A stretch of 40,901 nucleotides of DNA from a virus (IMGVR_UViG_2563366888_000019:1-40901); one strand, 5' to 3'; counted from the stretch's first letter, positions 5,875 through 35,407 are shown. Notes: a model not told the origin generated them from the sequence alone. Numbers and translations: made by a program.

Positions 5875-5891
5875 ATTACCTTTCAGGTAAT
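5875..5891. promoter_or_regulatory. operator-like 17-bp palindrome ATTACCTTTCAGGTAAT (site 1, perfect)
   Basis: perfect 7-3-7 inverted repeat in divergent intergenic region between tailspike and antirepressor-like gene. Confidence 0.6.
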
Positions 5892-5927
5892 TTGCAAAAC
5901 GTGCTGGATAGCAAACAAATTATTTGC

Positions 5928-5947
5928 TACTGTATAAATATACAGTT
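5928..5947. promoter_or_regulatory. LexA (SOS) box TACTGTATAAATATACAGTT
   Basis: CTGT-N8-ACAG, 18/20 match to the E. coli consensus as recalled; ends 20 bp upstream of ATG 5967. Confidence 0.7.
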
Positions 5948-5966
5948 ATTGCATGGAGAAGATAAG

Positions 5967-6224
5967 ATGCAGCAGTATCACTATCCACTGGAAGACGGAT
6001 TTACCGAAAGGATTCACACGCCGGGAGGCGTCAGGTCACTGGTGGAGGGATCGCATTTGATGAAATTACTCCGGGATCTCGATAAGGATGGATTTAATGT
6101 CGATGGCCCACTTGCCGAACTGACTGCACTGATTAACTACGTCACCAGCTCACAGATGTCTATGCAGGATCTGCAAACACATCTCGACTATTGTGCCGAA
6201 CAATTACGAAAACAAACCACATAA
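5967..6224 (+). CDS. small antirepressor-like protein (85 aa), probably SOS-controlled
   Basis: GGAGAAG SD; LexA box in its promoter; ~40% identity by eye to the C-terminal domain of the Bro-N protein at 7693..8388. Confidence 0.55.
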   Translation: MQQYHYPLEDGFTERIHTPGGVRSLVEGSHLMKLLRDLDKDGFNVDGPLAELTALINYVTSSQMSMQDLQTHLDYCAEQLRKQTT

Positions 6225-6230
6225 AGAAAA

Positions 6231-6246
6231 GGCCGCGAAAGCGGCC
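6231..6246. terminator. hairpin GGCCGCGAAAGCGGCC (copy 1 of 2)
   Basis: perfect 6-bp stem with GAAA loop between convergent genes; T-run on minus strand; identical copy at 9289..9304. Confidence 0.55.
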
Positions 6247-6247
6247 A

Positions 6248-6754
6248 TTAACAGTCGTAAAATTCTGGGTCCCACAAACTTGCATCGCGCGGCATGGATT
6301 CTAACTTTTTCAGCCGCAAAATTCTGTCACACTCGACAACTAATTTTTGCTTCTGCTCGTCAATTTCTACTGTCTTATGCGCTGGTTCATCCCAATAATC
6401 CAGAAGGAAGGCATGGCGTTCAGATGTGACCAGATAAATCACATACACGTCACTGGTTGGGATCTTTTTATGCTTGTTAGTGGTCTTGTCTTTCTTCCCA
6501 GACGCCCAGTTTTTCCAGCATTGTTCCGTACCGCTCTCACCAAACTTGTCAGTATAGTTTCCGATGTTTAAGTGAACGTGGCGTATGTGATATTCCAGCA
6601 TCTCTTTCGGTGGATCTCGAAACAGAGTGTCCTTTCCGAAATCCTTATGATGACCGTAGCGCCAGTGATCTATGAACGCGTTTTTGATAGGTATTAGCTC
6701 AGGGTCCTTCCCAAAAATTCCAGGGTGAACCAACCCCTGGAATTTATTCGGCAT
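6248..6754 (-). CDS. YafO-toxin-like protein, candidate toxin/abortive-infection effector (168 aa)
   Basis: IFGKD, YHIRHVHL and DEPAHK segments resemble the YafO mRNA interferase family as recalled from memory; overlaps upstream gene by 11 bp. Confidence 0.45.
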   Translation of the reverse strand: MPNKFQGLVHPGIFGKDPELIPIKNAFIDHWRYGHHKDFGKDTLFRDPPKEMLEYHIRHVHLNIGNYTDKFGESGTEQCWKNWASGKKDKTTNKHKKIPTSDVYVIYLVTSERHAFLLDYWDEPAHKTVEIDEQKQKLVVECDRILRLKKLESMPRDASLWDPEFYDC

Positions 6755-7271
6755 CGTCGTAGAGCTCCTGAGCCATGTCTTCAGCAGTGCGTGCAAACAT
6801 CCTGCGCGAGATTGCATGGGATTTCTCTACGGACATCTTTGGGACCTCATGCATAACAAGTTGATGAGTTTTCTCATCAACTTGAAGTGGCTTGTATAAA
6901 CGTTGCCACCTTTCGTTAATTTTATCCTTAAAGCCAGCGAAACCACTTTCCTGACTCTTGTATCCAAAATGAGATAAAGCCAAATTCCTTTCCATTTCAT
7001 TCCTAATGTACTCAGCAAGGTTGCAGTGGAATACTTCCCCTTGTTTTTTTAGGCATGCTTCATGGTCTGTAACACTGTGACGGCTCTCATATAAGTAAAT
7101 GCGATAGGAATTTTTATTATCCTCTTCTTCATAATTTCTAATCGCATCAGCAGTTGCCATAGCTGCAGCATAAGCGGCTGCTTCAATCACCATCTCTTGC
7201 TCTTTTTCTTTTTCAGGCCTTTTCAAGGCAAAGCGTCTATGCCTCATCGCTGTAACTCTCTTCGTGTTCAT
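6744..7271 (-). CDS. hypothetical protein, upstream partner of YafO-like gene (175 aa)
   Basis: AT-rich ORF, ATG at 7271 preceded by palindrome site 2; no recognisable motif. Confidence 0.5.
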   Translation of the reverse strand: MNTKRVTAMRHRRFALKRPEKEKEQEMVIEAAAYAAAMATADAIRNYEEEDNKNSYRIYLYESRHSVTDHEACLKKQGEVFHCNLAEYIRNEMERNLALSHFGYKSQESGFAGFKDKINERWQRLYKPLQVDEKTHQLVMHEVPKMSVEKSHAISRRMFARTAEDMAQELYDDAE

Positions 7272-7282
7272 GGGCACCCCCA

Positions 7283-7299
7283 ACTACCTTTAGGGTAAA
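7283..7299. promoter_or_regulatory. operator-like palindrome ACTACCTTTAGGGTAAA (site 2, degenerate)
   Basis: 12 bp upstream of ATG of 6744..7271. Confidence 0.45.
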
Positions 7300-7454
7300 C
7301 ATTCTATCGAAAGTATACGCTCACTGGCAAAAAAATAGGCAGGTATTTTCTGAAATGGGATCAATCAAACCACATAGGGTTGAAATGACGTGAGTTATGC
7401 ATTTATCATTACCTTTGCGGTAAATTTACATTGCACTCCTCTTGTGCCATAGTA

Positions 7455-7540
7455 ATCGGGCACTGGCAAAATCCAGTGCCGGGATTGGCGTTCCGGATTA
7501 CTAAAAGGCGCATTCACCGCGCAAGCGGTTTTTTTATGCG
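7455..7540 (+). ncRNA. candidate structured RNA / leader element with terminator
   Basis: 10-bp-stem hairpin CGGGCACTGG-N6-CCAGTGCCGG followed by ACCGC-GCAA-GCGGT plus T7 terminator; no credible ORF. Confidence 0.3.
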
Positions 7541-7692
7541 TATAGCACGGCCACATTCGTATTATGGTGGGCTGTGTGGGGGCACCGAAAGGTGCGCCGG
7601 GTCCTTTTAGCCGGTTACGCCAACCCTGCACAGTTCACCACCAACCGATTGGCGTCGGTAGTGGTGATTAACCAGACTAAAAGGTAACCACT

Positions 7693-8388
7693 ATGACAGC
7701 TACAAAAAGCACGTCCATTTTTTCTTTCGAATCCCAAGCCGATATACGAGTAATCGTCATAAATGGTGAGCCATGGTTTATCGCTTCAGATGTTTGTCGG
7801 GCTATAGGCATAGCAAACCATCGAGATGCTGTTCGAAAACTTGATGATGATGAGAAGGGCGTCGCTTCAACCGACACCCCTGGCGGTGAGCAAGAATCGA
7901 TCATCATCTCCGAGTCAGGCCTCTACACACTGATCCTCCGCTGCCGCGACGCAGTGACACCAGGCACTATCCCCTACCGCTTTCGTAAATGGGTTACAGG
8001 TGAGGTTCTTCCTCAGATCCGCCGCACCGGAAGTTACATTAAAAACTCGCTCCCGCAGGAAGAACGCATAAAGATGGTTGCCGACCAGGTAGCCAACGCC
8101 ACAGCATCAGCAGTGATGCAGGCAATGAAGATAGAGAACAAAACCTACAGCGCCCCACTGAAGCCCGGCTACCGCAGTTTGATTCACTCGCCGTCTGGTG
8201 TTCTCGGCCTGACGGAGAACTCACTGCTGATGAATCTGCTGAACCAGTTACAGGAAGACGGGCACGACGTATCGGGCGCGGCGGCGGAGCTGACCACCAT
8301 GTTCTGCTACATCGTCGGTGTGAGTAAATGCCTGCGTGATATCCAGACCCACGCGGAATACATCAACGACAAAGCAGGGTTCTTCTGA
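7693..8388 (+). CDS. Bro-N domain antirepressor-type protein (231 aa)
   Basis: N-terminal region matches BRO-N pattern; C-terminal domain paralogous to 5967..6224; AAAAGG SD. Confidence 0.7.
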   Translation: MTATKSTSIFSFESQADIRVIVINGEPWFIASDVCRAIGIANHRDAVRKLDDDEKGVASTDTPGGEQESIIISESGLYTLILRCRDAVTPGTIPYRFRKWVTGEVLPQIRRTGSYIKNSLPQEERIKMVADQVANATASAVMQAMKIENKTYSAPLKPGYRSLIHSPSGVLGLTENSLLMNLLNQLQEDGHDVSGAAAELTTMFCYIVGVSKCLRDIQTHAEYINDKAGFF

Positions 8389-8458
8389 CAGCGGCGGCAC
8401 AGGGATGTGCCTTTAAATAATTCGGTACAGATTGCAGACAGGGGGTGAATAGAGTACT

Positions 8459-8475
8459 ATTACCCCAAAGGTAAA
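8459..8475. promoter_or_regulatory. operator-like palindrome ATTACCCCAAAGGTAAA (site 3)
   Basis: 26 bp upstream of ATG 8501. Confidence 0.5.
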
Positions 8476-8500
8476 CCGAGAGTTTACATGAGGGGGAAAC

Positions 8501-8689
8501 ATGGAAATCAACATCATTACATTGCTGAAGGCCATTATTGGCGGAGCGGGCTTAGGCTTTGCCCTACCAGGCGGATTATCTTTCCTGCTTCCTGCTTTTA
8601 CTGTTACAGCTGGGATAGCCTATGCATTTGCTGTGGCTGGTGCTGTTGCACTCCCTGCTATCTATGCCGCAAAGAAGTTAGCCAACTAA
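8501..8689 (+). CDS. small Gly/Ala-rich hydrophobic peptide (62 aa), possible membrane-active peptide or toxin
   Basis: GGGGG SD; N-terminal 15 aa end in GG (double-glycine-leader-like), rest is GxxxG-rich hydrophobic with KKLAN tail. Confidence 0.45.
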   Translation: MEINIITLLKAIIGGAGLGFALPGGLSFLLPAFTVTAGIAYAFAVAGAVALPAIYAAKKLAN

Positions 8690-8690
8690 A

Positions 8691-9023
8691 ATGCCTGATT
8701 TATCTTGGCTTGCGCCCAGAGATGCACAGCAATTGACAAGGTTTTATTTCATACTGTGCATTGCTTATCTTGCTGTTCATCTGATATGGGATGCCGTTTG
8801 CAAAGATACGCCTCCTTTTTCTTTGGATAAGTTGCAATACAAGATGAATGAGGTTTATTCATCATCTACTTTTGCAACCAGCGCATTCTTCATTGTTATT
8901 CTGTTCGATATGAAGAATCCACTGAGAACTTCAGATGCTTTCATATTCCCATTAATTATTGCTGCTCTAACTGGCTTTATGATCTCATTATCAGCAATAG
9001 TGCCAAAGAAAGTAAATAACTGA
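8691..9023 (+). CDS. 3-TM membrane protein (110 aa), possible immunity or partner protein
   Basis: start 2 nt after stop of 8501..8689; three hydrophobic helices; terminator follows. Confidence 0.5.
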   Translation: MPDLSWLAPRDAQQLTRFYFILCIAYLAVHLIWDAVCKDTPPFSLDKLQYKMNEVYSSSTFATSAFFIVILFDMKNPLRTSDAFIFPLIIAALTGFMISLSAIVPKKVNN

Positions 9024-9026
9024 ATA

Positions 9027-9049
9027 AGCCCGCGTTGCGGGCTTTTTTA
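9027..9049 (+). terminator. rho-independent terminator
   Basis: AAGCCCGC-GTTG-GCGGGCTT stem-loop plus T6. Confidence 0.7.
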
Positions 9050-9120
9050 TGGACGAAACAAAAGTCAGTGCTACACTCATTGACGCCACATTGAGGTGGT
9101 TTATAGATGGAAATTTCACA

Positions 9121-9282
9121 ATGAAAAAAGCATTTGCTGCACTGTTCGTTTTGTTGTCTCTGGTAGCTTCAACTCAGGCCTTTGCCGGTCGTTGTCAGCA
9201 CGACAGCGACACTGCTGCTGACGGCTCCCGCTGCGGTGGGCGTTCTGCGGATTCCCGCCCAGGCGGCGGTGGCATTCGTTAA
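9121..9282 (+). CDS. small secreted Gly/Arg-rich peptide precursor (53 aa)
   Basis: Sec-type signal peptide ending AFA; mature ~31 aa with 2 Cys; TTGACG-N16-TATAGA promoter-like upstream; weak SD. Confidence 0.35.
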   Translation: MKKAFAALFVLLSLVASTQAFAGRCQHDSDTAADGSRCGGRSADSRPGGGGIR

Positions 9283-9288
9283 AAACAA

Positions 9289-9304
9289 GGCCGCGAAAGC
9301 GGCC
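9289..9304. terminator. hairpin GGCCGCGAAAGCGGCC (copy 2 of 2)
   Basis: identical to 6231..6246; between convergent 9121..9282 and 9319..9768. Confidence 0.55.
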
Positions 9305-9318
9305 TGTGACATGTCACG

Positions 9319-9768
9319 CTACTTGCGAAATCTTTCTTTACCCTTCCAGCCAGTAGATGTTAGTTCAGGATGAATGGTTCCCAATATAAAGCCAACCATA
9401 GCGGAGCGAGGATCTTCTATTTTATCCGTTAATTCTTCGGCATAACTCACAGGCAACCAAGCAACAAGATCACCAATCCTCAGCTTTGGTCCTTTGCTGT
9501 AAGATGAATCGGCAATAACAAAAAATCCACCATCAGCTGAGCACACCTTCAGCATTGCCCTTTGTCTTCCAGAATCTAGCAAAACTGGCTGTTCCCCACT
9601 TGGACCAGGTATGATGATGGCTGGCATTGGTTTATTGGCTGAAAGGCTTGTGTCAAGATACTTACACGCATACTCAAAAGCTGAAAAGTTATCCTTAAAG
9701 ATAAGAGGTTGAATTTTATTGCTAACCTCCTTACCACCGATTAATCTGTTGATCATCTTCTTGAACAT
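9319..9768 (-). CDS. hypothetical protein (149 aa)
   Basis: AGGTGA SD before ATG 9768; no recognisable motif; part of cargo island. Confidence 0.5.
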   Translation of the reverse strand: MFKKMINRLIGGKEVSNKIQPLIFKDNFSAFEYACKYLDTSLSANKPMPAIIIPGPSGEQPVLLDSGRQRAMLKVCSADGGFFVIADSSYSKGPKLRIGDLVAWLPVSYAEELTDKIEDPRSAMVGFILGTIHPELTSTGWKGKERFRK

Positions 9769-13611: not shown

Positions 13612-16358
13612 TATTTGCCCCCTGCGTATATATTGCTCGGAAGGTAATTGGCTGAACCATAACCGAATGGTTTGGTCAGATCTGGAGGAGTATATCCATC
13701 TTTATTGCTGAACTGCGGCAGCGGATTGCCTTCTCTCCGCACTCTAGCCTCATCAACACGCTGTTGCTGGAACTGAATGGTTTGCCTGTACATTGGAGAT
13801 GTCAGCTGATCCGGCTTGAAACGAACAGGGAGACCATTTTCTCCAATATAATTTCTCGGTTCTATCGCTCCGTTTGCGTCAGGCTGTAAAACCATAACAG
13901 CATAACTCCTATCCCTTGCCGTAAGGCCATCAGAAACAAGTATTAAGTCCGTATCACTGCGAGGACCGCCAAAGGATTTTGATTTAAGCTCGCGTTTTTC
14001 CTGCTCCCACTGCCCCTGTATCCAGTTACCAGCACCATTATTTACTCCGTACAATGCCTCAGGTGCATACTTCATAACCTCTGCTTTGCCATTAACCGTA
14101 GAAACTCCCCAGGTGGTTCTGATCATGGCATTGGTCATTTTCTCAGCCTGTTCTGCATCGCCACCTGTCTGTACAAAGTTAGCATCGTAAATTGTCTGGT
14201 AATCTCGCTGATAGGCCGCATTTGATTTTCCTGGATCGGTAATATCCGGAGACCACGAACCAAAGGAAGTCAGACTGCTGGCGTTATTTTGTGCAGCAGT
14301 TGCCCTCGCCGCGACATATTTTTTGTCTCGCATGGCAGTGGAAAGCATCTGTTTCATTCGGTCATCCTGTTGGAACACCTGGCTGTAAGCCATATCAACA
14401 GCCTTATCCTCCGGCACGCCAGCGCGGGAATAATCGTAAACCTTGCCGTAAAATGCCATCGTACTTTTATCAAGTGTTGCCGCTGCCGCCGGATTATTAT
14501 CGAATAACTGACCGTAGAATTTTGCCATCGGGACAACCAGCGCAGGATCTCTTGATGTTGCTCCACTGTTAAGCATTGTTTTAACCTGAGTTGGTATCAT
14601 GCCGCTTTTAGTTGTGACGGTGACCAGTGTATTGATGCTCTGCGGATCAGATATGGAAAACGAAGGCGCGATATCCTGCGCGAAATAACGGTCTACCGCT
14701 GCCTGATTGTTTTTGTCGTTCGGGTCCAGCGGGAAGTTATTTTGCATTGAAGACACGAACCTGTTTCTTCCCTGCTGAATCTCCCACTCCCTATCCATCT
14801 CTTTAAATTTGGCCTGCATTTTCTCCCAGCGTTGCTGGTTAGCTGCAAATCCAGGAGCATTTGGATCCTGTGGACGTAAACGTTCAAGAATGTCTTGTCG
14901 TCCTTCTGGAGTGAGGTCTTTAGCGGCACCAATGACACCTCCATATTGTATCTGCGCCTGCATATCCTTCCACTTCATAGCGCCAATGCGCGGACCATTG
15001 GCCCGGATAAAATCGTCCTCAGAAGGTAACTTCTCAGGTTTCAATCCTTCATCAAGGGCTGAATATGCATCTTTAACTACGGTGCTAAGCTGGTCCGCAT
15101 ACTGCTGGCGGTACTGATTTCTCAGCTCATTAGCCTGCCTCAATGCCTGTATTTGCATTTGAGGGCTCATAGCATCAAATGCCGCATTGCCCGTATAACG
15201 CTTAGGTGAATCAAGGTTAGTTAGACCAAGGGCTGCCGAGATACCAGTTTCAAGCTGTTCGGTGCTATAAGGCATACTGCCATTTTCGTGTTTAATAATC
15301 CCAGCACATAAAGCAGCTAGTGTCTTTGGGCTAGAGATATCAAGCTGATCATTCTCCCCAACACCAAGCTCACCACACAATGCCCTAATATAAGCATCAG
15401 TATTATTACCATCACTAGCCGGAGCATAGCGATTAACAATCTCGCTAACGGTGTCATAGCCTTGACGCTGGTAAGACAACATATTTTTACCCAACGCGCG
15501 GATTCCATGCTCAGGGGTAGCAAACGTTGCAAAACGTCCATCGCTACCGATCTGACCTTCCCACGGGTTAGATTTGCTCGCTTCAATATTACCAGGGTTA
15601 TTATTACGTAAACCACGAGCATCCAATGAATTACCATGTGATATTGCACGACTCACACCATCAAGATCCCCTGGCTCTCCATTAACCTGAAGAAACTCGT
15701 TGTATTTTTGAGCGATATTTCCTATCCATGCTTGCTGCCCCATTTGTTCCTTGAGCTGAGTTTTCTGCTGAACACGCCACTCATCAGGAAGCCCATGCGC
15801 ATCAGCGTATTGATCAATAGATTCAAATCGCTGCTTGGCTAAATCGACAAATGCTTGGTTATCGCTATATAGCCCCGCAGACTGAGTGACAGCCAATGCA
15901 TTTCCTGACAAATACGTTTGATCTTGGAATTGCTGAAACTGCCCAACTTCATATCGACGTGCCTGATTGTAATAAGACTGCATAGACTGCTGGAGTTGAA
16001 AGGATAATTTATTCCTTTCCTCACTTTCAGGAATTGAGCCTAATAATGCCTGAGCCCTTTCCTGCATATTTTTCATAACAGCGTCACTCTGACCAAGAGC
16101 GTTTTTACCCTGTTTAGAAATCAGCCCACTTTCAGGGTTGTTAATCTGGTCATCTGCAAATTGGTTAAATTGCAGTAACGCCTCCTGGGACATAGCAACA
16201 TTCGCTTTCTGCCTGGCTTCACCATATGCCACCGCATACTGATCTGCGACATTCGCCAGCACCTGACCTGCTTGAGGAACATCGAAGATCTGAAAACCAC
16301 CGGTTTGCACACCACGACTTTGCACCTGACGTCCGGATACTGTTGGTACGACTGGCAT
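13611..16358 (-). CDS. internal virion / ejection protein, gp15-like by position (915 aa)
   Basis: ATG at 16358 overlaps upstream stop (TAATG) with GGAGG SD; track start at 16433 is an upstream extension. Confidence 0.55.
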   Translation of the reverse strand: MPVVPTVSGRQVQSRGVQTGGFQIFDVPQAGQVLANVADQYAVAYGEARQKANVAMSQEALLQFNQFADDQINNPESGLISKQGKNALGQSDAVMKNMQERAQALLGSIPESEERNKLSFQLQQSMQSYYNQARRYEVGQFQQFQDQTYLSGNALAVTQSAGLYSDNQAFVDLAKQRFESIDQYADAHGLPDEWRVQQKTQLKEQMGQQAWIGNIAQKYNEFLQVNGEPGDLDGVSRAISHGNSLDARGLRNNNPGNIEASKSNPWEGQIGSDGRFATFATPEHGIRALGKNMLSYQRQGYDTVSEIVNRYAPASDGNNTDAYIRALCGELGVGENDQLDISSPKTLAALCAGIIKHENGSMPYSTEQLETGISAALGLTNLDSPKRYTGNAAFDAMSPQMQIQALRQANELRNQYRQQYADQLSTVVKDAYSALDEGLKPEKLPSEDDFIRANGPRIGAMKWKDMQAQIQYGGVIGAAKDLTPEGRQDILERLRPQDPNAPGFAANQQRWEKMQAKFKEMDREWEIQQGRNRFVSSMQNNFPLDPNDKNNQAAVDRYFAQDIAPSFSISDPQSINTLVTVTTKSGMIPTQVKTMLNSGATSRDPALVVPMAKFYGQLFDNNPAAAATLDKSTMAFYGKVYDYSRAGVPEDKAVDMAYSQVFQQDDRMKQMLSTAMRDKKYVAARATAAQNNASSLTSFGSWSPDITDPGKSNAAYQRDYQTIYDANFVQTGGDAEQAEKMTNAMIRTTWGVSTVNGKAEVMKYAPEALYGVNNGAGNWIQGQWEQEKRELKSKSFGGPRSDTDLILVSDGLTARDRSYAVMVLQPDANGAIEPRNYIGENGLPVRFKPDQLTSPMYRQTIQFQQQRVDEARVRREGNPLPQFSNKDGYTPPDLTKPFGYGSANYLPSNIYAGGK

Positions 16359-19838: not shown

Positions 19839-20443
19839 CAGGACAACCTCGCAATGGTAAACTCGTCAACCGGTGGCTGTGGTTCCTGTGATTCATTCTG
19901 GCTATGCGAGCCAGCACTAAGAATCACGCGATTGTACATATTGAGGGCAAACGTACCGAGGTCTGCATTCCCAGTCAGCGCCATGTTAATAGCTGCCGCA
20001 AGACGCCAGGCCAACGCCTCCATAAAAATGGCATCAAACATGTTCACATCTGAAACGCGAGAGACATACTTGAGCCATGCCTGCGGCTGGTCTGTGTAGA
20101 TCAACTTTCCTGTTCCGTTGGTGTCTGCACCAACTTCGTACTGAACGCGCATTGCTGCTGTTGGATTGCGTACACCAGGAAGCATAATTTCAGTAATGCG
20201 CAGACAATCGGACGGGTACTGGTACGCATATTCCCAGTCAGGCGGTGGATTGTTCGTATCTGCAAGCGCCACGCGTTTGGTAGCAAAGTTCCAGTCAAAA
20301 TCAGAAAGCACAGCATCACGGCAGGCCTCAAAGTGCAGCGAACATTCCCCTGCTTCCTTGCTGGCTTCCGTCAGGCTGTTAATGCTGCGGCTGTTGCCAA
20401 TATTGGACAGCGCACGATTACAGATCTCTACTACAGAGGACAT
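19838..20443 (-). CDS. tail tubular protein A-like (gp11-like) (201 aa)
   Basis: size and order match T7 gp11; ATG at 20443 overlaps upstream stop. Confidence 0.45.
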   Translation of the reverse strand: MSSVVEICNRALSNIGNSRSINSLTEASKEAGECSLHFEACRDAVLSDFDWNFATKRVALADTNNPPPDWEYAYQYPSDCLRITEIMLPGVRNPTAAMRVQYEVGADTNGTGKLIYTDQPQAWLKYVSRVSDVNMFDAIFMEALAWRLAAAINMALTGNADLGTFALNMYNRVILSAGSHSQNESQEPQPPVDEFTIARLS

Positions 20444-25541: not shown

Positions 25542-25609
25542 ATCAATGACTCCGTACGCAATTAAATTATTACCAATTTAACCACATATGATTTATTTAT
25601 CGTAGATGG

Positions 25610-25638
25610 TTGACATTTAACGCACAAATTATTACCTT
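25610..25638 (+). promoter_or_regulatory. candidate promoter (-35 TTGACA) facing the tRNA
   Basis: TTGACA at 25610-25615; poor -10 (TACCTT) overlapping palindrome site 4. Confidence 0.3.
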
Positions 25639-25647
25639 TCAGGTAAC
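25631..25647. promoter_or_regulatory. operator-like palindrome ATTACCTTTCAGGTAAC (site 4)
   Basis: same core as site 1; between head operon start and tRNA. Confidence 0.55.
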
Positions 25648-25968
25648 CAAAGAGTTCATTCCGGTTACTAACCTGACTGGCTTGTCGTTAAATTGAACAG
25701 GTGGAGTGAGCTTTTATTTTGAGCAGTACGGCGTATGGCACATGCGCCGATAGCGGTCTGGATACGTTTAAGGGGCACCCTCCCTTGCTCGGGCAAACGA
25801 ACCAGGTAGCCGGAATGTGCAAGTCGAGCGGTTTTATTCCGCGCACGGGGATTCACCATCCCGGCGATTCGGTGTGACGCCTCGGAAGAGACGAGGGTAC
25901 AACGATGAGAGCATTTATGGAGCCGCGACAAAGTGTGGCGCCTTAACAGGCTAAGTGCTCTCAGCGTT

Positions 25969-26045
25969 GTGGCATTAGCTCAGTTGGACAGAGCAACCGC
26001 CTTCTAAGCGGTTGGTCGCAGGTTCGAATCCTGCATGCCACGCCA
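25969..26045 (+). tRNA. tRNA-Arg (anticodon UCU)
   Basis: 77 nt; acceptor stem GTGGCAT/ATGCCAC, T-loop GGTTCGAATCC, anticodon loop CTTCTAA, discriminator G and encoded CCA; close to host argU-type tRNA as recalled. Confidence 0.85.
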
Positions 26046-26088
26046 GAATCACGCCTAAGGACCGTGATGCCAGAAGTTCCAGGGGCTT

Positions 26089-26131
26089 GGCGGTGATGGT
26101 TTCCCTTGAAGGACTATCACCGCCCTTTTTA
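26089..26131 (+). terminator. rho-independent terminator after tRNA
   Basis: GGCGGTGAT...ATCACCGCC stem then CTTTTTA. Confidence 0.55.
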
Positions 26132-26208
26132 CAGCAGGACGCCATTGCGATGACTTCATGCTGTAAACCAGTACAGCCACGGAAGGCATAACTCATTGCT
26201 TCCAGTTC

Positions 26209-26232
26209 GCCCGGTTCGCCGGGCATTTTTTT
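26209..26232 (+). terminator. second rho-independent terminator
   Basis: GCCCGG-TTCG-CCGGGC then ATTTTTTT. Confidence 0.65.
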
Positions 26233-26243
26233 AAGGTGAGATT

Positions 26244-26615
26244 ATGAACGACCAGTAAATCGAAAAAGAAATCGCAGCCAAGGGTAAGACGGCGGCTCGC
26301 GTTACTCCTGAACACATTGCCAGCATAATCGCCAGCGAACATTACTTTACGGCCGCTGATGGTGCTCGCTTTGCTCATGTGCAGAGAAGCGAAACATACA
26401 GCGTAAAAATCCCAGACCAGCCTGACGAGCTGGAGCTGCTGACATTCTGCGTACTGGTGCTGAAGAATGGCTTCACTGTCACCGGAGAGAGTGCCTGTGC
26501 AAGTCCGGAAAATTTTGATGCAGAAATTGGTCGGAAGATTGCCCGGCAGAATGCTGTAAACAAAATCTGGATGCTTGAAGGTTACTTGCTGAAGCAGAAG
26601 TTAAGCGAGCAATAA
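26244..26615 (+). pseudogene. 123-codon ORF interrupted by in-frame TAA at codon 5 (alternatively a 78-aa CDS from GTG 26379)
   Basis: AAGGTGAG SD then ATG AAC GAC CAG TAA; same frame stays open and protein-like for 119 codons. Confidence 0.4.
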
Positions 26616-26635
26616 CACATTGACATGTCACAAAC

Positions 26636-26663
26636 AGCCAGCCGATGAGCTGGCTTTGTTTTA
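26636..26663 (+). terminator. rho-independent terminator
   Basis: AGCCAGC-CGATGA-GCTGGCT then TTGTTTT. Confidence 0.6.
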
Positions 26664-26705
26664 TCCTCATCAGAGGATATCAACGACATTATCCCCACCA
26701 GCGGA

Positions 26706-28181: not shown

Positions 28182-28774
28182 TGATTACCATCCTGACGTT
28201 CTTTGAGTCGCTTCCTGGCTGCTGCTATGCGATCAGCAATTGTCACATTCACATTAACATCCAGACGTTCTTTGAATGCGTTGACATCAACATGCTTACC
28301 AATCAGCTCAAGGTTCTTCACCTTGTCAGGCCATTTAATTTTTTTGAGGATTGTCTCTATCGAATCCTCGTTCATGTTCATGATGGTCGATGACAGATCA
28401 AAGCCGCTAAGCGTAGTGCGCCAGATTTTCGGCCACTCGCGGATTGGCTTAAGGCTCCCATCGTCGTTGAGGATGTCGATCACGTCCATCTGGTCGATCT
28501 CCACCAGGCGCATGAGAACGTAATCAGCACTGACGCGCATTCGTTTGTTGCGCTCCTCCATCAACTCGGCAATCCGTTTCTGAATGCGTTCATCGCGCAT
28601 CATGACACTGGCTTTAACTGCCGCTGTATTTGGGGAGAATCCTGCGTTAATCGCAGCCTGAGTCTGATTTTCAGGCGTTTTGATGTATGACTGGCAATAA
28701 GCCTCCTGCATTGCTGTTAGTGGCTTAAATTGCGTTGATTTGCGTTTATAGGTTTTAGGTTCAGCAGGCATCAT
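28178..28774 (-). CDS. terminase small subunit (198 aa)
   Basis: HTH segment LTAMQEAYCQSYI...TQAAINAGFS typical of small terminases; ATG-ATG at 28774 after GGTGG SD; track start 28852 is a TTG extension through a terminator. Confidence 0.7.
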   Translation of the reverse strand: MMPAEPKTYKRKSTQFKPLTAMQEAYCQSYIKTPENQTQAAINAGFSPNTAAVKASVMMRDERIQKRIAELMEERNKRMRVSADYVLMRLVEIDQMDVIDILNDDGSLKPIREWPKIWRTTLSGFDLSSTIMNMNEDSIETILKKIKWPDKVKNLELIGKHVDVNAFKERLDVNVNVTIADRIAAARKRLKERQDGNQ

Positions 28775-28789
28775 AACCACCGTGGTAAT
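28773..28789. promoter_or_regulatory. operator-like palindrome ATAACCACCGTGGTAAT (site 5a)
   Basis: overlaps TerS start codon and SD. Confidence 0.45.
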
Positions 28790-28790
28790 A

Positions 28791-28807
28791 GTTACCGTTG
28801 TGGTAAT
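28791..28807. promoter_or_regulatory. operator-like palindrome GTTACCGTTGTGGTAAT (site 5b)
   Basis: adjacent to 5a; near-identical to site 13 in reverse. Confidence 0.5.
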
Positions 28808-28816
28808 AGTACCATG

Positions 28817-28843
28817 CAAAATAAAGCCGCCATAGTTGGCGGC
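28817..28843 (-). terminator. rho-independent terminator upstream of terminase genes
   Basis: GCCGCC-AACTAT-GGCGGC then TTTATTTTG on minus strand. Confidence 0.65.
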
Positions 28844-28848
28844 AGTAT

Positions 28849-29061
28849 TCAAAGTCCATCAAATTCATCGTAAAAACTCTCGTCAAGATACCCTTTCCAT
28901 TTACCGCGAATGAAAATTACATCCTCGCCGCAAGGGTGCTGACTGTCGATAACTATATCCCTCCTGGCGCAACCATACTTATGCATGAGAAATTTAACCT
29001 CTTTCGGAAAATTAGCTGAGTTATCTCTCATATCTTCAAGGTCGTAGCGTATTTTTGGCAT
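28849..29061 (-). CDS. hypothetical protein (70 aa)
   Basis: GAAGGTG SD before ATG 29061. Confidence 0.4.
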   Translation of the reverse strand: MPKIRYDLEDMRDNSANFPKEVKFLMHKYGCARRDIVIDSQHPCGEDVIFIRGKWKGYLDESFYDEFDGL

Positions 29062-29078: not shown

Positions 29079-29417
29079 TCACACTATTAATTTCGTTTCA
29101 TGCCAGCCTTTGGTCACCCAGCATTGCGAGTCACCATTACACGGGCATGAATTAACTGGAACTCTCTCGCCGCACTTACCGCAACGTTTTCTGCTGATCG
29201 ATTTTATACGCCCGCGCACCCGGGCATCATCCTGGCGGATCAGCAGCGCGATGTACTCGGCCATTTCATAGGGATCTCGACCAGGGCGCCGGGCGGCGCA
29301 GTTCCGCTCCAGCATTTCAATTTCCTGAGCATCAAGCACAATCTCCAGCTTACGCACACCAGATGCAGCTTGTCTGGCTCTCTGAGCGGCTTTGCGCTCT
29401 GCTGCTGATTTAGCCAT
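29079..29417 (-). CDS. hypothetical protein with C-terminal Cys-rich zinc-ribbon-like motif (112 aa)
   Basis: basic Ala/Arg-rich N-terminus; CGKCGERVPVNSCPCNG. Confidence 0.45.
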   Translation of the reverse strand: MAKSAAERKAAQRARQAASGVRKLEIVLDAQEIEMLERNCAARRPGRDPYEMAEYIALLIRQDDARVRGRIKSISRKRCGKCGERVPVNSCPCNGDSQCWVTKGWHETKLIV

Positions 29418-30630: not shown

Positions 30631-30631
30631 A

Positions 30632-31873: not shown

Positions 31874-32221
31874 TCAGAACTCTTCGATGTTCCAGCCACC
31901 ACCTGCTTTCTTTGGCTTAACCGTTACCCCGATGATTCGGAACGGATACTGATCTGCGGCGACTTTGGTTTTCACTCTGGCGTCATCGGTCCAGAATCCC
32001 CCTTTCACTTCGTGCAGTTCCATCTCGCCGGTGGCGAGCATCACAGCAAAATCTGGCGTATAGAACGTGTTGTCAGCTAACCGCAGCTTGATACCCTCAA
32101 ATCGATACCAGACGATTTCTCCTGCACGTTTACGCAACTCAAGGTGCTGGCAATACGCAGATTCTGTTTTGTTCATCTGGCCTGTTTTGAGTCGACCAAG
32201 AGCCTGCATCTGTTTTCTCAT
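31874..32221 (-). CDS. DUF1064-type phage protein (115 aa)
   Basis: family assignment from memory; GAGG SD inside palindrome site 6. Confidence 0.5.
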   Translation of the reverse strand: MRKQMQALGRLKTGQMNKTESAYCQHLELRKRAGEIVWYRFEGIKLRLADNTFYTPDFAVMLATGEMELHEVKGGFWTDDARVKTKVAADQYPFRIIGVTVKPKKAGGGWNIEEF

Positions 32222-32223
32222 GA

Positions 32224-32240
32224 TTTACCTCTGAGGTAAT
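32224..32240. promoter_or_regulatory. operator-like palindrome TTTACCTCTGAGGTAAT (site 6)
   Basis: 3 bp upstream of ATG 32221; candidate minus-strand promoter (TTGATT-N17-TTTAAT) just upstream. Confidence 0.55.
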
Positions 32241-32285
32241 TAAAAACCACATAAGACACGAAATCAATAGAGTTTAGAATATTTT

Positions 32286-32302
32286 ATTACCTGATGGGTA
32301 AT
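32286..32302. promoter_or_regulatory. operator-like palindrome ATTACCTGATGGGTAAT (site 7)
   Basis: centre exactly 62 bp from site 6. Confidence 0.55.
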
Positions 32303-32338
32303 TATTTGAGCGTAAAAAAATGCGCTATCGCGCTGGTA

Positions 32339-33139
32339 TTACTTGATAAATCCTGCCGCCTTTCCCCGCCTGTATTCCTCCATCAGCCACTGCGCCGGTG
32401 TTATTCCCCCAAGGGTGGCGGCGTTAGGCATGCACCCGAAACTTCGCCCAGGTGGATGGTAAACGTCTCTCCCTGTGTCCGGAGGTGTACTCATGGGCTC
32501 TGGCTTTGCCTGTATGCTGATCACCGGATCGGGTATCTGCTGTCCGGAAGCCACCTTTTTCGCCCAATCATCGAGCAGCCTGCGCGCGTGTTTCTCAACC
32601 TCAATCTCGCTAAGCTGGCGCTGATACATTGCACGGCGGGTATCACATACGACCCAGTACATAACCGGATGTCGCCACGGGAATCTTTCGGGACCACCAG
32701 GATATAAACTTTTTTCCTTGCTGTACCGGTGAAACTCCGCCATCACATCGTCAATGGTGACGCCAAGAACCATCTTGCTGTCTTTACACCACTTGATGAA
32801 TTGCCCTGGCGACGGCCAGAACGGAGACTCACTGGCGCGGGCGTGGCGCATACCAGCAGAAACCTGTTCACGGGTTCGGATCCCCCCTTCGGCAAACGCA
32901 GCAATCCACTGCTGTTTTGCAGCAACTTCCTGCTCTGGCGTCTTCAGGTTGGTTACCACTGCCGCCGGAAACAGTTGTTTCAGCTGTTTGAAAAGGGCAT
33001 CAACAAGCCTCTCTGCTGACATGTTCACCACGTTGTCATTGTTGGTGTACTGATGCTCATAACCTGACATGCGAGAAAGGGCTTCTCCGTCACGGTTTTG
33101 TATCGCGGTAAAAACGTTGTTCACAAGAAATCCTCCCAT
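32339..33139 (-). CDS. replication protein P-like helicase loader (266 aa, start uncertain)
   Basis: SPFWPSPGQFIKWC matches the lambda P PFLPSPGQFVAWC region as recalled; follows O-like gene. Confidence 0.7.
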   Translation of the reverse strand: MGGFLVNNVFTAIQNRDGEALSRMSGYEHQYTNNDNVVNMSAERLVDALFKQLKQLFPAAVVTNLKTPEQEVAAKQQWIAAFAEGGIRTREQVSAGMRHARASESPFWPSPGQFIKWCKDSKMVLGVTIDDVMAEFHRYSKEKSLYPGGPERFPWRHPVMYWVVCDTRRAMYQRQLSEIEVEKHARRLLDDWAKKVASGQQIPDPVISIQAKPEPMSTPPDTGRDVYHPPGRSFGCMPNAATLGGITPAQWLMEEYRRGKAAGFIK

Positions 33140-33936
33140 GCTTCAGGGCTGTTCCAGTGCGGAACGTTGTTATCAGGTAATGTTGATTGCTTCTGTCTGC
33201 TAATCTGCAGCCGCCTTGCCAGCTTCTGCTCCCACTGTGCCTGATGGTATGCCTTACCCTCAGCCATCCAGTAAATTCTGAACTCTGCAAGTTCCTGTGC
33301 CGTTGGCAGACTGTCCAGGTAGATCCCCTGCAATGAGCTTTTCCGAAGAAAGTCATCTGATGGTTGCCATTGTTCATGCATGACAAATTTGCCTAATTGC
33401 CCTAGCCCACCAGGAGGAATAAAGTTATTCATCACGGCGTTGTTTGCGCCGGGGTCATGAGGCACAGAATCCCCGTTTTTTGTCCTGCTCTCCCTCTCTT
33501 GGTTAAATGACTGGTTATATGACTGGTTCTGGATCCCGTTTTTGGGATCATTCAACATCCCGTTTTTGGGATCATTCAACATCCCGTTTTTGGGTATATT
33601 CCCTTTTTCGGTAACATTACCGTTTTCGGGTTCATTGCCACCCTCACGGTTGCCTTTAATGTTCCCGTTTTTGGTTATATTAAGAGAGAAAACCCGCACT
33701 CTTTTTGTCGCTCCCTTTCTCTCTCCGGTATCTGAAATAAGCCCCATTTTCATGAGCGATATAAGCCCGGCCTGCACGGTTTTTTTATTCAGGCAAGTGT
33801 CTTTAACGAGGCGTTCTATGCTGGGGTAGCAGAGGTTATATTCATCGGCTCTGTCAGCCATCGAGAGCAGTATGAGCTTTAATGATGAGCTACCTGGATC
33901 TGTCTCCCAGGCCCAATCTGTTGCATGTCTGCTCAT
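33121..33936 (-). CDS. replication initiator O-like protein with internal origin (271 aa)
   Basis: N-terminal HTH-type domain; iteron array inside the CDS encodes PKNGMLND repeats; GGAG SD. Confidence 0.7.
   Translation of the reverse strand: MSRHATDWAWETDPGSSSLKLILLSMADRADEYNLCYPSIERLVKDTCLNKKTVQAGLISLMKMGLISDTGERKGATKRVRVFSLNITKNGNIKGNREGGNEPENGNVTEKGNIPKNGMLNDPKNGMLNDPKNGIQNQSYNQSFNQERESRTKNGDSVPHDPGANNAVMNNFIPPGGLGQLGKFVMHEQWQPSDDFLRKSSLQGIYLDSLPTAQELAEFRIYWMAEGKAYHQAQWEQKLARRLQISRQKQSTLPDNNVPHWNSPEAWEDFL
33533..33680. repeat. origin iterons (3 near-perfect 24-bp repeats plus about 3 degenerate copies)
   Basis: ATCCCGTTTTTGGGATCATTCAAC x2, ATCCCGTTTTTGGGTA, then degenerate CCGTTTT-containing copies; each has internal dyad ATCCC-N6-GGGAT. 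Confidence 0.7.
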
Positions 33937-33951
33937 GATTAATCTCCGCTA

Positions 33952-34152
33952 TCAGCTTGAGTGTTGTGGGGAGGAATTAATCATGATCTGCTTAATCTCT
34001 GCCCTGATGCGACGGTTTGATTCCATGGTGCACTCAACACAGTGTCCGTTGTAAACCCAGCGTTCACTGTCATGTCCGTGCTTACATGTTTTTCCGGTGT
34101 AGTAGCGTTTAAGTCCGCGCTTTGCGGCATCAATACGTGTAATGATTTCCAT
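33952..34152 (-). CDS. small basic Cys/His-rich protein (66 aa)
   Basis: ATG at 34152; CKHGHDSERWVYNGHCVEC motif; between Cro-like and O-like genes. Confidence 0.4.
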   Translation of the reverse strand: MEIITRIDAAKRGLKRYYTGKTCKHGHDSERWVYNGHCVECTMESNRRIRAEIKQIMINSSPQHSS

Positions 34153-34231
34153 GGTAAGCCCTGTTATTAGTATTGGGATTACGGTTATTTTGTGCTGACA
34201 CAAAAAAAAGATCAACCATATTTGGTTTTTT

Positions 34232-34248
34232 ATTACCTTTGAGGTACG
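34232..34248. promoter_or_regulatory. operator-like palindrome ATTACCTTTGAGGTACG (site 8)
   Basis: between Cro-like gene stop and the 33952..34152 gene. Confidence 0.45.
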
Positions 34249-34302
34249 AATAGATATGAAAAGACCGCCGGATGGCGGTCTACAGAGGGTTGTGGCTGGA
34301 TA

Positions 34303-34533
34303 TCATGAGTAGAAGAAGTATGCCAGTTCTGCTTTTGAGCGCAGCCATTGTCTTGTTTTACAGGCTTTAAAAAGCCCATTCATCAATACCTTACCTGGCA
34401 TTTTGCGCTTACCTGTTAAGTGAGTCTGGATATAGTGACTCGTCGTTCCGGCTTCCTGTGCGAAGGCTTCACGCTCATCCGGAGTAAGTGCAAGCCAGTG
34501 CTTTTTGAAATCGAAATGTCCGTTATCGCTCAT
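34303..34533 (-). CDS. Cro-like HTH regulator (76 aa)
   Basis: first gene of minus-strand early operon, divergent from repressor; HTH-like EAFAQEAGTTSHYIQTHL. Confidence 0.5.
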   Translation of the reverse strand: MSDNGHFDFKKHWLALTPDEREAFAQEAGTTSHYIQTHLTGKRKMPGKVLMNGLFKACKTRQWLRSKAELAYFFYS

Positions 34534-34545
34534 AGCTATTGCCTG

Positions 34546-34569
34546 ATATTTATTTCAGATAATAAATAT
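34546..34569. promoter_or_regulatory. AT-rich inverted repeat ATATTTATT-N6-AATAAATAT
   Basis: perfect 9-bp arms adjacent to Cro-like start; not a LexA box. Confidence 0.35.
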
Positions 34570-34585
34570 TCACCTATAAGGTAAC
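34569..34585. promoter_or_regulatory. operator-like palindrome TTCACCTATAAGGTAAC (site 9)
   Basis: divergent immunity region. Confidence 0.45.
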
Positions 34586-34599
34586 AAAAATCAAGGATA

Positions 34600-34616
34600 G
34601 TTACCCATGAGGTGCA
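34600..34616. promoter_or_regulatory. operator-like palindrome GTTACCCATGAGGTGCA (site 10, degenerate)
   Basis: divergent immunity region, abuts site 11. Confidence 0.4.
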
Positions 34617-34633
34617 TTTACCTGTTGGGTAAT
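34617..34633. promoter_or_regulatory. operator-like palindrome TTTACCTGTTGGGTAAT (site 11)
   Basis: divergent immunity region, ~55 bp upstream of repressor ATG. Confidence 0.55.
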
Positions 34634-34687
34634 ATTGCTTTAAATTGAATCATCTTCTGATTCAGATATGAGGCGATTTTCCAGAAA

Positions 34688-35272
34688 ATGAAAAGTATCC
34701 AGGACGTCCGCAGGCAAAATCTCAACGACTTGATCGACCGTGAATTCAATGGTGTTCAGACGCGGATGGCTGAAAAACTTGGAACTCAGGCAAATCTGGT
34801 AAACCGCTGGGCTCTTGGCAAGAAGGTTATCGGCGACCAGGTTGCGCGAAAAATTGAAGCTGCCGCCAATAAACCCCGTAACTGGCTTGATATCGATCGC
34901 TCGCTTTCTCAGGAAGGTTTTCAGCCTGTCGGACCAAGCGACATTGGTCAACTGGCGGCTCACAACCTGGAACGCTGGATGAGCGAAAGCCGCGACCTTT
35001 CAACGCAGGGAAAACTTCACCGCGCATCCGGCGTCGCCCAGGTGACAATCAGCCGCCTGTTAAACAATGAGGTCAGCGTTTCCATTTCCACCCTGGAGAA
35101 TGTTGCATCCGCATTCGGGCGTCACGGCTATGAATTACTGATTCACCCGCACGACCCTGCGACTATCAACTATGACCGCTCGCGCTACGCTTTGTTACCC
35201 GAAACCGAGAAAGCAAAGATCGAAAGTTACATTGAATTTGTCATCAACCAGAACGAAAAAAACAAACAATAA
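34688..35272 (+). CDS. prophage repressor candidate, tandem HTH, no S24 peptidase domain (194 aa)
   Basis: two HTH-like segments (QTRMAEKLGTQANLVNRWALG and ASGVAQVTISRLLNNEVSVS); no Ser-Lys autocleavage motifs; divergent from Cro-like; weak SD; terminator follows. Confidence 0.55.
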   Translation: MKSIQDVRRQNLNDLIDREFNGVQTRMAEKLGTQANLVNRWALGKKVIGDQVARKIEAAANKPRNWLDIDRSLSQEGFQPVGPSDIGQLAAHNLERWMSESRDLSTQGKLHRASGVAQVTISRLLNNEVSVSISTLENVASAFGRHGYELLIHPHDPATINYDRSRYALLPETEKAKIESYIEFVINQNEKNKQ

Positions 35273-35292
35273 AATCATATTTTTCAGTAAGT

Positions 35293-35318
35293 AAGCCGCC
35301 TTATGGCGGCTTTTTTAT
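35293..35318 (+). terminator. rho-independent terminator
   Basis: GCCGCC-TTAT-GGCGGC then T7. Confidence 0.7.
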
Positions 35319-35328
35319 TGCCTATTCT

Positions 35329-35345
35329 ATTACCTAACGGGTAAT
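35329..35345. promoter_or_regulatory. operator-like palindrome ATTACCTAACGGGTAAT (site 12, perfect half-sites)
   Basis: 19 bp upstream of -35 TTGACA. Confidence 0.6.
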
Positions 35346-35363
35346 TTTTTTAACTCATATCTA

Positions 35364-35392
35364 TTGACACCAAACCAGATACGCATAATTAT
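35364..35392 (+). promoter_or_regulatory. early-left promoter candidate
   Basis: -35 TTGACA at 35364-35369, AT-rich -10 region about 17 bp later, flanked by sites 12 and 13. Confidence 0.45.
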
Positions 35393-35407
35393 TACCTCAA
35401 CGGTAAC
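35391..35407. promoter_or_regulatory. operator-like palindrome ATTACCTCAACGGTAAC (site 13)
   Basis: overlaps -10/+1 of the early-left promoter; centre 62 bp from site 12. Confidence 0.6.

Follow-up and report, generated by a model that had tools for sequence, protein, structure and literature searches.

The window, meaning the whole 40,901-nucleotide stretch of viral DNA that was analysed, is an E. coli prophage of the genus Uetakevirus (a phiV10/epsilon15-like podovirus) lying between yfgI and guaA. It is therefore not lambdoid in the strict sense, as a preliminary description of the sequence had called it. The regulatory genes and modules are listed here:

34688..35272, + strand: rep, encoding a 194-aa tandem-HTH repressor that is proposed to read the palindrome described below
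34303..34533, - strand: cro-like gene, encoding a 76-aa HTH protein (phrog_35, transcriptional repressor)
5930..6224, + strand: perfect LexA box CTGTATAAATATACAG (5930-5945) followed by ant (5967-6224), encoding a small antirepressor
7460..8388, + strand: second antirepressor module with an isrK-like sRNA (7460-7535), a C4 antisense RNA (7560-7645) and a BRO-family protein (7693-8388)

Rep is a full-length homologue of the Rep protein of Salmonella phage SPC32H (5D50_A, E=4e-42, residues 1-190) and is 100% identical to the repressor of phiV10 and ZX5. A Pfam search of Rep gave HTH families only, and a C-terminal S24 peptidase domain of the CI type was not found in it. A profile search of viral contigs with a Rep alignment returned only 100% identical copies. 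The ant gene is divergent from the tailspike gene, and its product is 88% identical to SPC32H Ant (5D50_E, E=1.3e-47). In the second module the isrK-like RNA scored 72.3 bits and the C4 RNA 77.7 bits against Rfam (C4 gathering score 45), and the BRO-family protein carries a Bro-N domain (E=2.3e-21).

The regulatory genes share the window with a palindrome whose core, TACC-N5-GGTA, occurs in 12 exact copies against ca. 0.6 expected for the whole window. As had been proposed, the sites are intergenic: all 12 exact cores lie in non-coding DNA, which makes up 8.9% of the window, and one poor match within coding sequence (13632) is probably due to chance. Three further copies with one mismatch adjoin exact ones, giving 15 sites in total. 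Among all 4-mer palindromes, scanned without bias at gaps from 0 to 12, this core ranked first (Poisson p ~2e-12), and replacing the spacer of 5 by 3, 4, 6 or 7 left 0-1 matches each in the window. Searching for ATTACCTNNNAGGTAAT at three mismatches or fewer gave 15 matches against 1.3 expected, and at least 15 were reached in 0 of 100 shuffles. A weight matrix trained on four other genomes only, applied with a cut-off of at least 10 bits, detected 13 window sites, each of them intergenic, compared to a single match of 10.8 bits in phage lambda. Match counts against expectation, shuffles and matrix scan thus rule out a chance origin of the sites. The genus-wide consensus is ATTACC-W5-GGTAAT and the sites are two-fold symmetric; TTACC and GGTAA are invariant, and positions 7 and 11 are weakly T and A (~40% T and A).

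The preliminary description had listed 14 sites, 13 of which were recovered at their coordinates with three mismatches or fewer; the one at 34600 is weak, and a site at 7408-7424 had been missed. The candidate operators are:

5875..5891, unstranded: operator flanked by the tailspike gene (- strand, ATG 5771) and ant (+ strand, ATG 5967); exact match, 26.6 bits
7283..7299, - strand: operator 1 nt 3' of the -10 in TTGCCA-18-TAGAAT (7330-7301)
7408..7424, + strand: operator over the -10 of TTGAAA-18-TATCAT (7380-7409)
8459..8475, + strand: operator over the -10 TACTAT (8455-8460) of TTGCAG-17-TACTAT, 12 nt before ATG 8488
25631..25647, + strand: operator over the -10-like TACCTT (25633-25638), with the -35 TTGACA at 25610
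28773..28807, - strand: two operators with centres 18 bp apart, 28791-28807 having an exact core and 28773-28789 one core mismatch
32224..32302, - strand: operator pair 62 bp apart after the P-gene terminator, flanking TTGATT (32267-32262)-17-TTTAAT (32244-32239)
34232..34248, - strand: single operator ~9 nt past the T-run of the cro terminator (34281-34262)
34569..34633, unstranded: divergent rep/cro control region with three operators
35329..35407, + strand: operator pair spaced by 62 bp, following the rep terminator (35293-35312) and flanking TTGACA (35364)-17-AATTAT (35392)

The sites lie over a -10 or the start region of transcription, or else flank a promoter in pairs spaced by 62 bp, and four distal operators start ~10 nt past a terminator. 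Promoter-like hexamers overlap the sites at 7283, 7408, 34569 and 35391. Several of the promoter candidates are weak or a hexamer match alone, and promoter scanners found promoter-like sites to be no commoner than in shuffled sequence. Several sites have recurring strings next to them, such as CTATTCT, and also the box TATGTGGTTT. The string AAACCACATA was considered as an operator component or a promoter element of the + strand, and both readings were rejected; read in the orientation of the genes it is TATGTGGTTT, located 6 nt ahead of -10-like hexamers that belong to late genes.

In the tailspike/ant gap the operator directly adjoins the palindromic hexamer TTGCAA (5892-5897). The operator at 7283 covers the start region of an operon for a 175-aa protein and a YafO-like protein (ATG 7271), and the candidate promoter at 7380-7409 leads to the isrK-like sRNA, the C4 RNA and the BRO antirepressor; the operator at 7408 has an identical counterpart ahead of the BRO module in phiV10 (20496). 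The + strand promoter at 25610-25638 serves a tRNA-Arg and Gp49-family cargo unit, and its operator also precedes the gp3/portal promoter region on the - strand. Control of early, late and cargo operons, as originally suggested, is supported, with the correction that the site at 25631 covers this opposite-strand cargo promoter and not the late operon itself. The two operators near terS are situated between a terminator (28843-28826) and the terS ATG at 28771; TGgTACTAT adjoins 28791-28807, and 28773-28789 covers the ribosome-binding site. Their description as intergenic holds if terS starts at this ATG (MPAEPK), a start common to epsilon15, and fails with the TTG at 28852 given in RefSeq and phiV10.

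The spacing of 62 bp that had been noted for both pairs is correct. The ribosome-binding site (GAGG) of the DUF1064 gene (ATG 32221) lies within the proximal operator of the pair at 32224..32302. An antisense promoter on the + strand (AAGACA-16-TAGAAT), between 32224 and 32286, was considered and rejected in favor of the - strand promoter, because only the - orientation gives a base-for-base alignment with the module of the leftward operon. The latter, with promoter TTGACA (35364)-17-AATTAT (35392), is a leftward-type early operon (recombination, Xis/AlpA, PerC, methylase). The single operator at 34232..34248 is 79 nt upstream of the gp40/DnaT-like/P replication genes. A cluster of three sites was correctly recognized in the divergent rep/cro region: 34569-34585 lies within the candidate cro promoter TTGTTA-17-TATTAT (34587-34559), and 34617-34633, upstream of rep, abuts 34600-34616 at 17 bp. 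The middle site (GTTACCCATGAGGTGCA) is weak, with more than three mismatches to the pattern first described and one core mismatch. Its position is an exact-core site in epsilon15 and SPC32H, again abutting its neighbor at 17 bp, and such a 17-bp pair with exact cores occurs in epsilon15, SPC32H and a Klebsiella phage. Abutting sites at 17-18 bp face different sides of the helix.

Comparison with known systems showed that the sites are a rediscovery. The RefSeq record of epsilon15 (NC_004775), a Salmonella phage of the same genus, labels seven palindromes as repressor-binding sites at positions homologous to those in the window: ahead of terS, next to the gp50/gp3 cargo region, in the gap separating ant (gp19) from the tail fibre, past the end of rep and following the replication genes. 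The annotated epsilon15 counterparts are 19895-19911 for the operator at 5875, 2931-2947 for that at 25631 (with the same TTGACA-15 nt-ATTACC geometry), 12-27 for the terS operators, 35906-35922 for one member of the pair at 32224..32302, and 32554 and 32616 for the pair at 35329..35407. The TACC-N5-GGTA palindrome, the relative positions and the 62-bp pairs are the same in both phages. The epsilon15 record marks 7 of 13 exact cores, and the unmarked ones include both in the rep/cro gap, one before the lysis genes and one beside int. Epsilon15 Rep is only 43% identical to that of the window, and the window sites before the BRO/C4 module, the operon with the YafO-like gene and a small-gene unit are absent from epsilon15 together with these units. 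The paper behind the epsilon15 annotation is reportedly that of Kropinski et al. 2007 (Virology 369:234), and the Rep-Ant switch of SPC32H is said to be described by Kim and Ryu 2013 and Kim et al. 2016 (PDB 5D50, 5D4Z), so that both the sites in epsilon15 and the structure of the repressor family were known. SPC32H resembles the window in its Rep and Ant proteins and in the LexA box before ant, and it has 11 exact cores including both 62-bp pairs. Its Rep is ~42% identical to that of the window, which adds the BRO-type antirepressor behind a C4 RNA. A full-text literature search for the motif strings returned nothing relevant.

More distant systems also use scattered operators. The C1 repressor of phage P1 acts alone on dispersed operators, and the P1 immI operon has the order c4-icd-ant. 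The window is similar in having scattered operons under one repressor and an operator (7408) ahead of a C4 antisense RNA and an antirepressor gene; P1 C1, however, is unrelated in sequence and has asymmetric 17-bp operators, whereas the window sites are palindromic and often paired. The stoperators of mycobacteriophage L5, bound by gp71, are many repressor sites in short intergenic gaps, asymmetric and orientation-dependent. A similar roadblock role is possible for the four window sites ~10 nt past terminators, although the window sites are symmetric and mostly over promoters. Since dispersed operators are known in Uetakevirus, P1 and L5, the statement that such an arrangement is unusual for lambdoid phages was overstated. 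The likeness to lambda CI/Cro consists of the divergent rep/cro genes and their three operators, together with another operator cluster some 0.7 kb away at the leftward promoter; cooperative binding to multiple sites would be a further parallel. In contrast to lambda, release in the window would be by an antirepressor and not by RecA-driven cleavage, the S24 domain is lacking, and operators also precede late and cargo units.

These comparisons suggest that the palindromes are very probably the operators of Rep, which would act as the master repressor of the prophage. The tandem-HTH repressor had been proposed as the reader from the start, and the epsilon15 annotation, the homology to SPC32H Rep and the identity to the ZX5 repressor support this. 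Overexpression of the ZX5 repressor abolished free phage and lowered mRNA levels of holin and endolysin by over 99.9% (PMC9782041). The simple binding dimer that was envisaged does not agree with the Rep homologue being reported to bind palindromic sites as a tetramer in which the DNA-binding domain pairs come from different dimers (PMC9638917, citing Kim 2016).

The other candidate reader is the Cro-like protein. If it, and not Rep, were the main reader, the dispersed sites would shut down or tune operons during lytic growth. We consider this unlikely. Its family is annotated as transcriptional repressors, and the candidate recognition helix TTSHYIQ.HLT does not vary among five genomes, which would fit an invariant operator. 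The protein is also better conserved than Rep (58-84% against 43-78% identity to the window copy), and lambda Cro and CI, as the paradigm, use common operators. The Rep N-terminal helix is NLVNRW in five genomes, and NLVSRW and NLISRW occur as variants; the operator core is invariant everywhere, even where the helix differs, and covariation can therefore not assign the reader to Rep or Cro. The epsilon15 authors, on the other hand, assign the sites to the repressor, the tetrameric binding of palindromic sites mentioned above fits the paired arrangement, and both the operator at 7408, ahead of an antirepressor operon, and release through LexA and Ant make sense for a maintenance repressor. The Cro-like protein may share operators with Rep; binding by both is likely and compatible with Rep as the main reader.

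Conservation across relatives bears on whether the sites are functional at all. The palindrome also ranked highest by enrichment in six Uetakevirus genomes, each with 10-13 exact cores, as well as in three further prophages. The 62-bp spacing occurred 11 times across the six genomes, with one additional case at 63 bp, and the pair at 32224..32302 was present in all six. In an alignment of 12 modules nothing was invariant except both operator cores and a -35 of fixed location, cTATTGA. The palindromes might mainly mark junctions of duplicated promoter cassettes, inherited by descent or exchanged as mosaic modules, with most copies outside rep/cro being non-regulatory. The two 62-bp modules are indeed paralogous, and the recurrence of CTATTCT and TATGTGGTTT beside several sites would agree with duplication. 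We nevertheless regard this as quite improbable because the spacer diverged between the E. coli, Salmonella, Klebsiella and Enterobacter phages while cores, -35 and the exact 62-bp spacing were kept, which indicates selection on function and not mere descent. Moreover, the sites persist beside non-homologous neighbors, for example P/DUF1064 versus DnaT-like/RuvC.

A host factor as the binder is highly improbable: the antitoxin MqsA recognizes ACCT-N(2-4)-AGGT, and ACCT-N3-AGGT does occur within five window sites, but it is found in only these five, the T of ACCT and the A of AGGT fall on the weakly conserved positions 7 and 11 outside the invariant half-sites, and the motif accompanies the phage in hosts of five genera (E. 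coli, Salmonella, Klebsiella, Enterobacter and Serratia phages) while being nearly absent from lambda.

The motif, its enrichment, placement and conservation and the homologies are what the analysis established; with Rep as the reader, we infer from sequence the following course of binding, looping and roadblock action. Each N-terminal HTH domain of Rep would read one TTACC half-site. As the tetramer published for the SPC32H homologue offers two DNA-binding pairs, a single Rep tetramer could hold two operators simultaneously, either abutting at 17-18 bp (rep/cro, terS) or separated by 62 bp, which corresponds to about six turns of the helix. At this wider spacing the -35 would be between the sites, with the -10 and the start point under the proximal site; the exact spacing fits the published proposal of tetramer binding. 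During lysogeny Rep would shut cro, the leftward early operon, replication with the downstream early operon, and terS with the late genes. It would likewise silence the tailspike/ant region, two cargo units and the BRO antirepressor module, and the four distal operators past terminators might also block read-through. Homology predicts that on induction LexA cleavage leads to production of Ant, which would bind Rep and strip the tetramer from the DNA, so that all units would open together.

A more ambitious combination of these elements is possible, but we put it forward tentatively and think it rather doubtful as a whole. The Rep tetramer would clamp each 62-bp pair as a six-turn micro-loop round the -35, the distal operators would serve as insulating roadblocks, and one protein would directly gate every unit, including the late, lysis, cargo and second antirepressor units. 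The 12-15 dispersed operators would then have frozen the core throughout the genus, in the phages of all five host genera, though Rep identity drops to 42%.

What is known of these phages is unchanged by the map. What is added is a complete set of candidate operators for a common type of E. coli prophage integrating at guaA, with 15 sites compared to the 7 annotated in epsilon15, and a likely correction of the terS start to ATG 28771. The published proposal of a Rep tetramer is tied to a concrete DNA layout, with pairs at exactly 62 bp or at 17-18 bp, and the BRO/C4 antirepressor module is placed under the same control as the other units. The layout predicts which units would open together once Ant is made. 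If the operator core is indeed frozen throughout the genus, immunity types would differ little, or through the central bases only.

The first ~1161 nt of the window are host DNA (yfgH and yfgI) and the rest is a Uetakevirus prophage, near phiV10, phiv142-3 and ZX5, ending at the integrase gene adjoining guaA. Its 194-aa tandem-HTH repressor Rep (34688-35272) has the same sequence as the phiV10 and ZX5 repressors (100% identity) and matches the repressor structure of Salmonella phage SPC32H over its full length (5D50_A, E=4e-42). The product of 5967-6224 shares 88% identity with the SPC32H antirepressor Ant, and a perfect LexA box (5930-5945) lies upstream of ant. When the ZX5 repressor was overexpressed, free phage disappeared and the mRNA of holin and endolysin fell by 99.97-99.99% (PMC9782041).

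The preliminary description had reported 14 copies of the palindrome ATTACCT-N3-AGGTAAT. The pattern ATTACCTNNNAGGTAAT matched the window exactly once, and 15 times with up to three mismatches against 1.3 expected, a number reached by no shuffle. The informative core was TACC-N5-GGTA, with 12 exact copies; the same half-sites at spacings of 3, 4, 6 and 7 gave 0-1 exact copies each in the window. Among all possible 4-mer palindromes, scanned without bias at gaps of 0-12, this core ranked first (12 observed, 0.59 expected, p ~2e-12). All 12 exact cores were located in non-coding DNA, which is 8.9% of the window in the curated gene map, and thus for exact cores the claim that coding sequence holds no copy is borne out. 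The sites at 28773, 34569 and 34600 are one-mismatch cores, each adjoining an exact core, while the six intragenic one-mismatch cores are at chance level (~7.7 in phiV10 shuffles) and the match at 13632 is poor and lies inside coding sequence. Thirteen of the 14 described sites were recovered; 34600 is weak, and a site at 7408 had been overlooked. That nearly all transcription units in the window carry such a site is upheld by the following contexts, in which we infer the promoters at individual sites.

Predicted operators (numbered by the first base of the palindrome), candidate promoters and cargo genes
5875: between ant and the tailspike gene
7283: 1 nt past the -10 of TTGCCA-18-TAGAAT, 11 nt upstream of the ATG of an operon that includes a YafO-like gene
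7408: overlapping the -10 of TTGAAA-18-TATCAT, leading to an isrK-like sRNA, a C4 antisense RNA and a BRO antirepressor
8459: overlapping a TACTAT -10, 12 nt upstream of a small + strand gene
25631: overlapping the -10 in the + strand promoter (-35 TTGACA at 25610) of an opposite-strand cargo unit
25969-26045, +: tRNA-Arg(TCT) of this cargo unit
26379-26615, +: Gp49-family gene of this cargo unit
28791 and 28773: occupying the gap from a terminator to the terS ATG at 28771
32267-32239: candidate promoter TTGATT-17-TTTAAT in a 62-bp pair
34232: after the cro terminator
34569: within the candidate cro promoter
34600 and 34617: mutually abutting, upstream of rep
35364-35392: candidate promoter TTGACA-17-AATTAT in a 62-bp pair

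Behind 7283 lies a two-gene - strand cargo operon (6248-7271), whose products are a 175-aa protein (phrog_9503) and a 168-aa protein with weak similarity to YafO, the latter called a YafO family toxin in a relative's record. The region 7460-7645, between 7408 and the BRO gene, contains the isrK-like Hfq-binding sRNA (72.3 bits) and the C4 antisense RNA (77.7 bits). Like P1 immI, the window has a C4 RNA with an antirepressor gene, a second antirepressor module besides the SPC32H-type Ant. The + strand cargo unit (25610-26700) lies inside the - strand late region and has + strand terminators. In RefSeq and phiV10, the terS start is a TTG corresponding to 28852, and two operators would then be intragenic; read from the ATG at 28771 the protein begins with MPAEPK, as at the epsilon15 TerS start, and this ATG is likely the true start.

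In the RefSeq record of epsilon15, seven sites are annotated as repressor-binding; these are TACC-N5-GGTA palindromes.

Annotated sites in epsilon15
12-27: before terS
2931-2947: beside gp50/gp3
19895-19911: between gp19 (Ant homologue) and the tail fibre gene
32479, 32554 and 32616: between gp37 and the rep end
35906: after the DnaT-like gene

By position they match window sites 28773/28791, 25631, 5875, 35329/35391 and 32286, and the TTGACA-15 nt-ATTACC geometry at 25631 is also kept in epsilon15. The palindrome ranked first or second in all six genomes examined, with 12 exact cores in the window, 10 in phiV10, 13 in epsilon15 (0.25 expected), 11 in SPC32H and 12 each in Klebsiella phage BUCT711 and Enterobacter phage Tyrion; the genus consensus is ATTACC-W5-GGTAAT. 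Relatives have additional sites upstream of lysis genes and int. With the window excluded from its training, a weight matrix scored 13 window sites at 10 bits or above and had a single match, of 10.8 bits, in lambda. The palindrome was also top in three further prophages with a variant Rep helix, one from Serratia. The core is unchanged where this helix reads NLVSRW or NLISRW rather than NLVNRW and where Rep identity falls to 42-55%, the Serratia prophage included. Judged from these sequences, immunity specificity seems to involve no divergence at the operator core. Since the core never changes, covariation does not separate Rep from the Cro-like protein (76 aa, 34303-34533, - strand), an alternative reader that also has an invariant putative recognition helix and that probably binds the rep/cro sites, at least, in common with Rep.

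Among neighboring sites in the six genomes, a spacing of exactly 62 bp was seen in 11 cases, 63 bp in one and 17 bp in three. When both kinds of 62-bp module from these genomes were aligned, the only invariant elements were the two operator cores and a cTATTGA at a fixed position, the remaining spacer sequence having diverged. The pattern is that expected of a promoter with its -35 between the operators and a -10 whose end falls on the proximal operator's first two bases. Descent of duplicated cassettes accounts for some common flanks, but it leaves unexplained the kept cores and exact spacing within diverged spacers. The conserved positions of the motif are at odds with a host factor such as MqsA. 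Four distal operators each start ~10 nt past the T-run of a rho-independent terminator.

Terminator-operator spans
28791-28848: 77-aa gene
32286-32338: P
34232-34281: cro
35293-35345: rep

This suggests a terminator-operator-promoter-operator unit with a possible roadblock role.

Two further elements were observed. A box TAT(G/A)TGGTT(T/A) occurs on the - strand at three positions.

Copies of the box
5835-5844, -
25579-25588, -
32244-32253, -

Ahead of gp3 and the tailspike gene, a -10-like hexamer (TAATAA and TAATAG, respectively) is located 6 nt after the box, and in phiV10, epsilon15, SPC32H and Tyrion there is also a copy before lysis genes (TATAAT or TATGAT); the gp3 copy is present in 6/6 genomes. 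We regard the box as a candidate late-promoter element covering about -28 to -19, which the 112-aa regulator encoded at 29079-29417 may recognize. Iteron-like tandem repeats inside the DnaT-like replication gene (33500-33636) comprise 2.6 copies of ATCCCGTTTTTGGGATCATTCAAC at 100% identity, together with degenerate 17-18 bp copies and a 12-bp repeat, and form a candidate replication origin.

Work by Kim in 2016 is said to assign DNA binding to the N-terminal domain of Rep and tetramer formation to residues 92-198. The proposal that one regulator, the tandem-HTH repressor, serves early, late and cargo units is supported by Rep homology and the epsilon15 annotation, except that a tetramer has been reported in place of the proposed dimer. 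Where PMC9638917 discusses Kim 2016, Rep is described as binding palindromic DNA as a tetramer, with DNA-binding domains pairing from different dimers, and Ant as breaking this tetramer. Sites in twos (17-18 bp or 62 bp, about six helical turns) would follow from the two DNA-binding pairs of the tetramer. Rep would clamp both operators of a pair and occlude the promoter between them, and single sites may pair over longer range, as with 7283 and 7408, 125 bp apart. Cleavage of LexA would allow Ant to be made and Rep to be released from all sites together.

By sequence comparison the system is of a known kind, the Rep-Ant system of epsilon15 and SPC32H, with predicted operators where epsilon15 already has them annotated. 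Scattered repressor sites have known precedents in P1 (C1) and L5 (gp71), although those sites are asymmetric and the proteins unrelated. What the analysis adds is detail, not a new kind of system: a complete map of 15 sites, the 62-bp rule throughout the genus, the predicted operator before the C4/BRO module and the invariance of the core over Rep variants.
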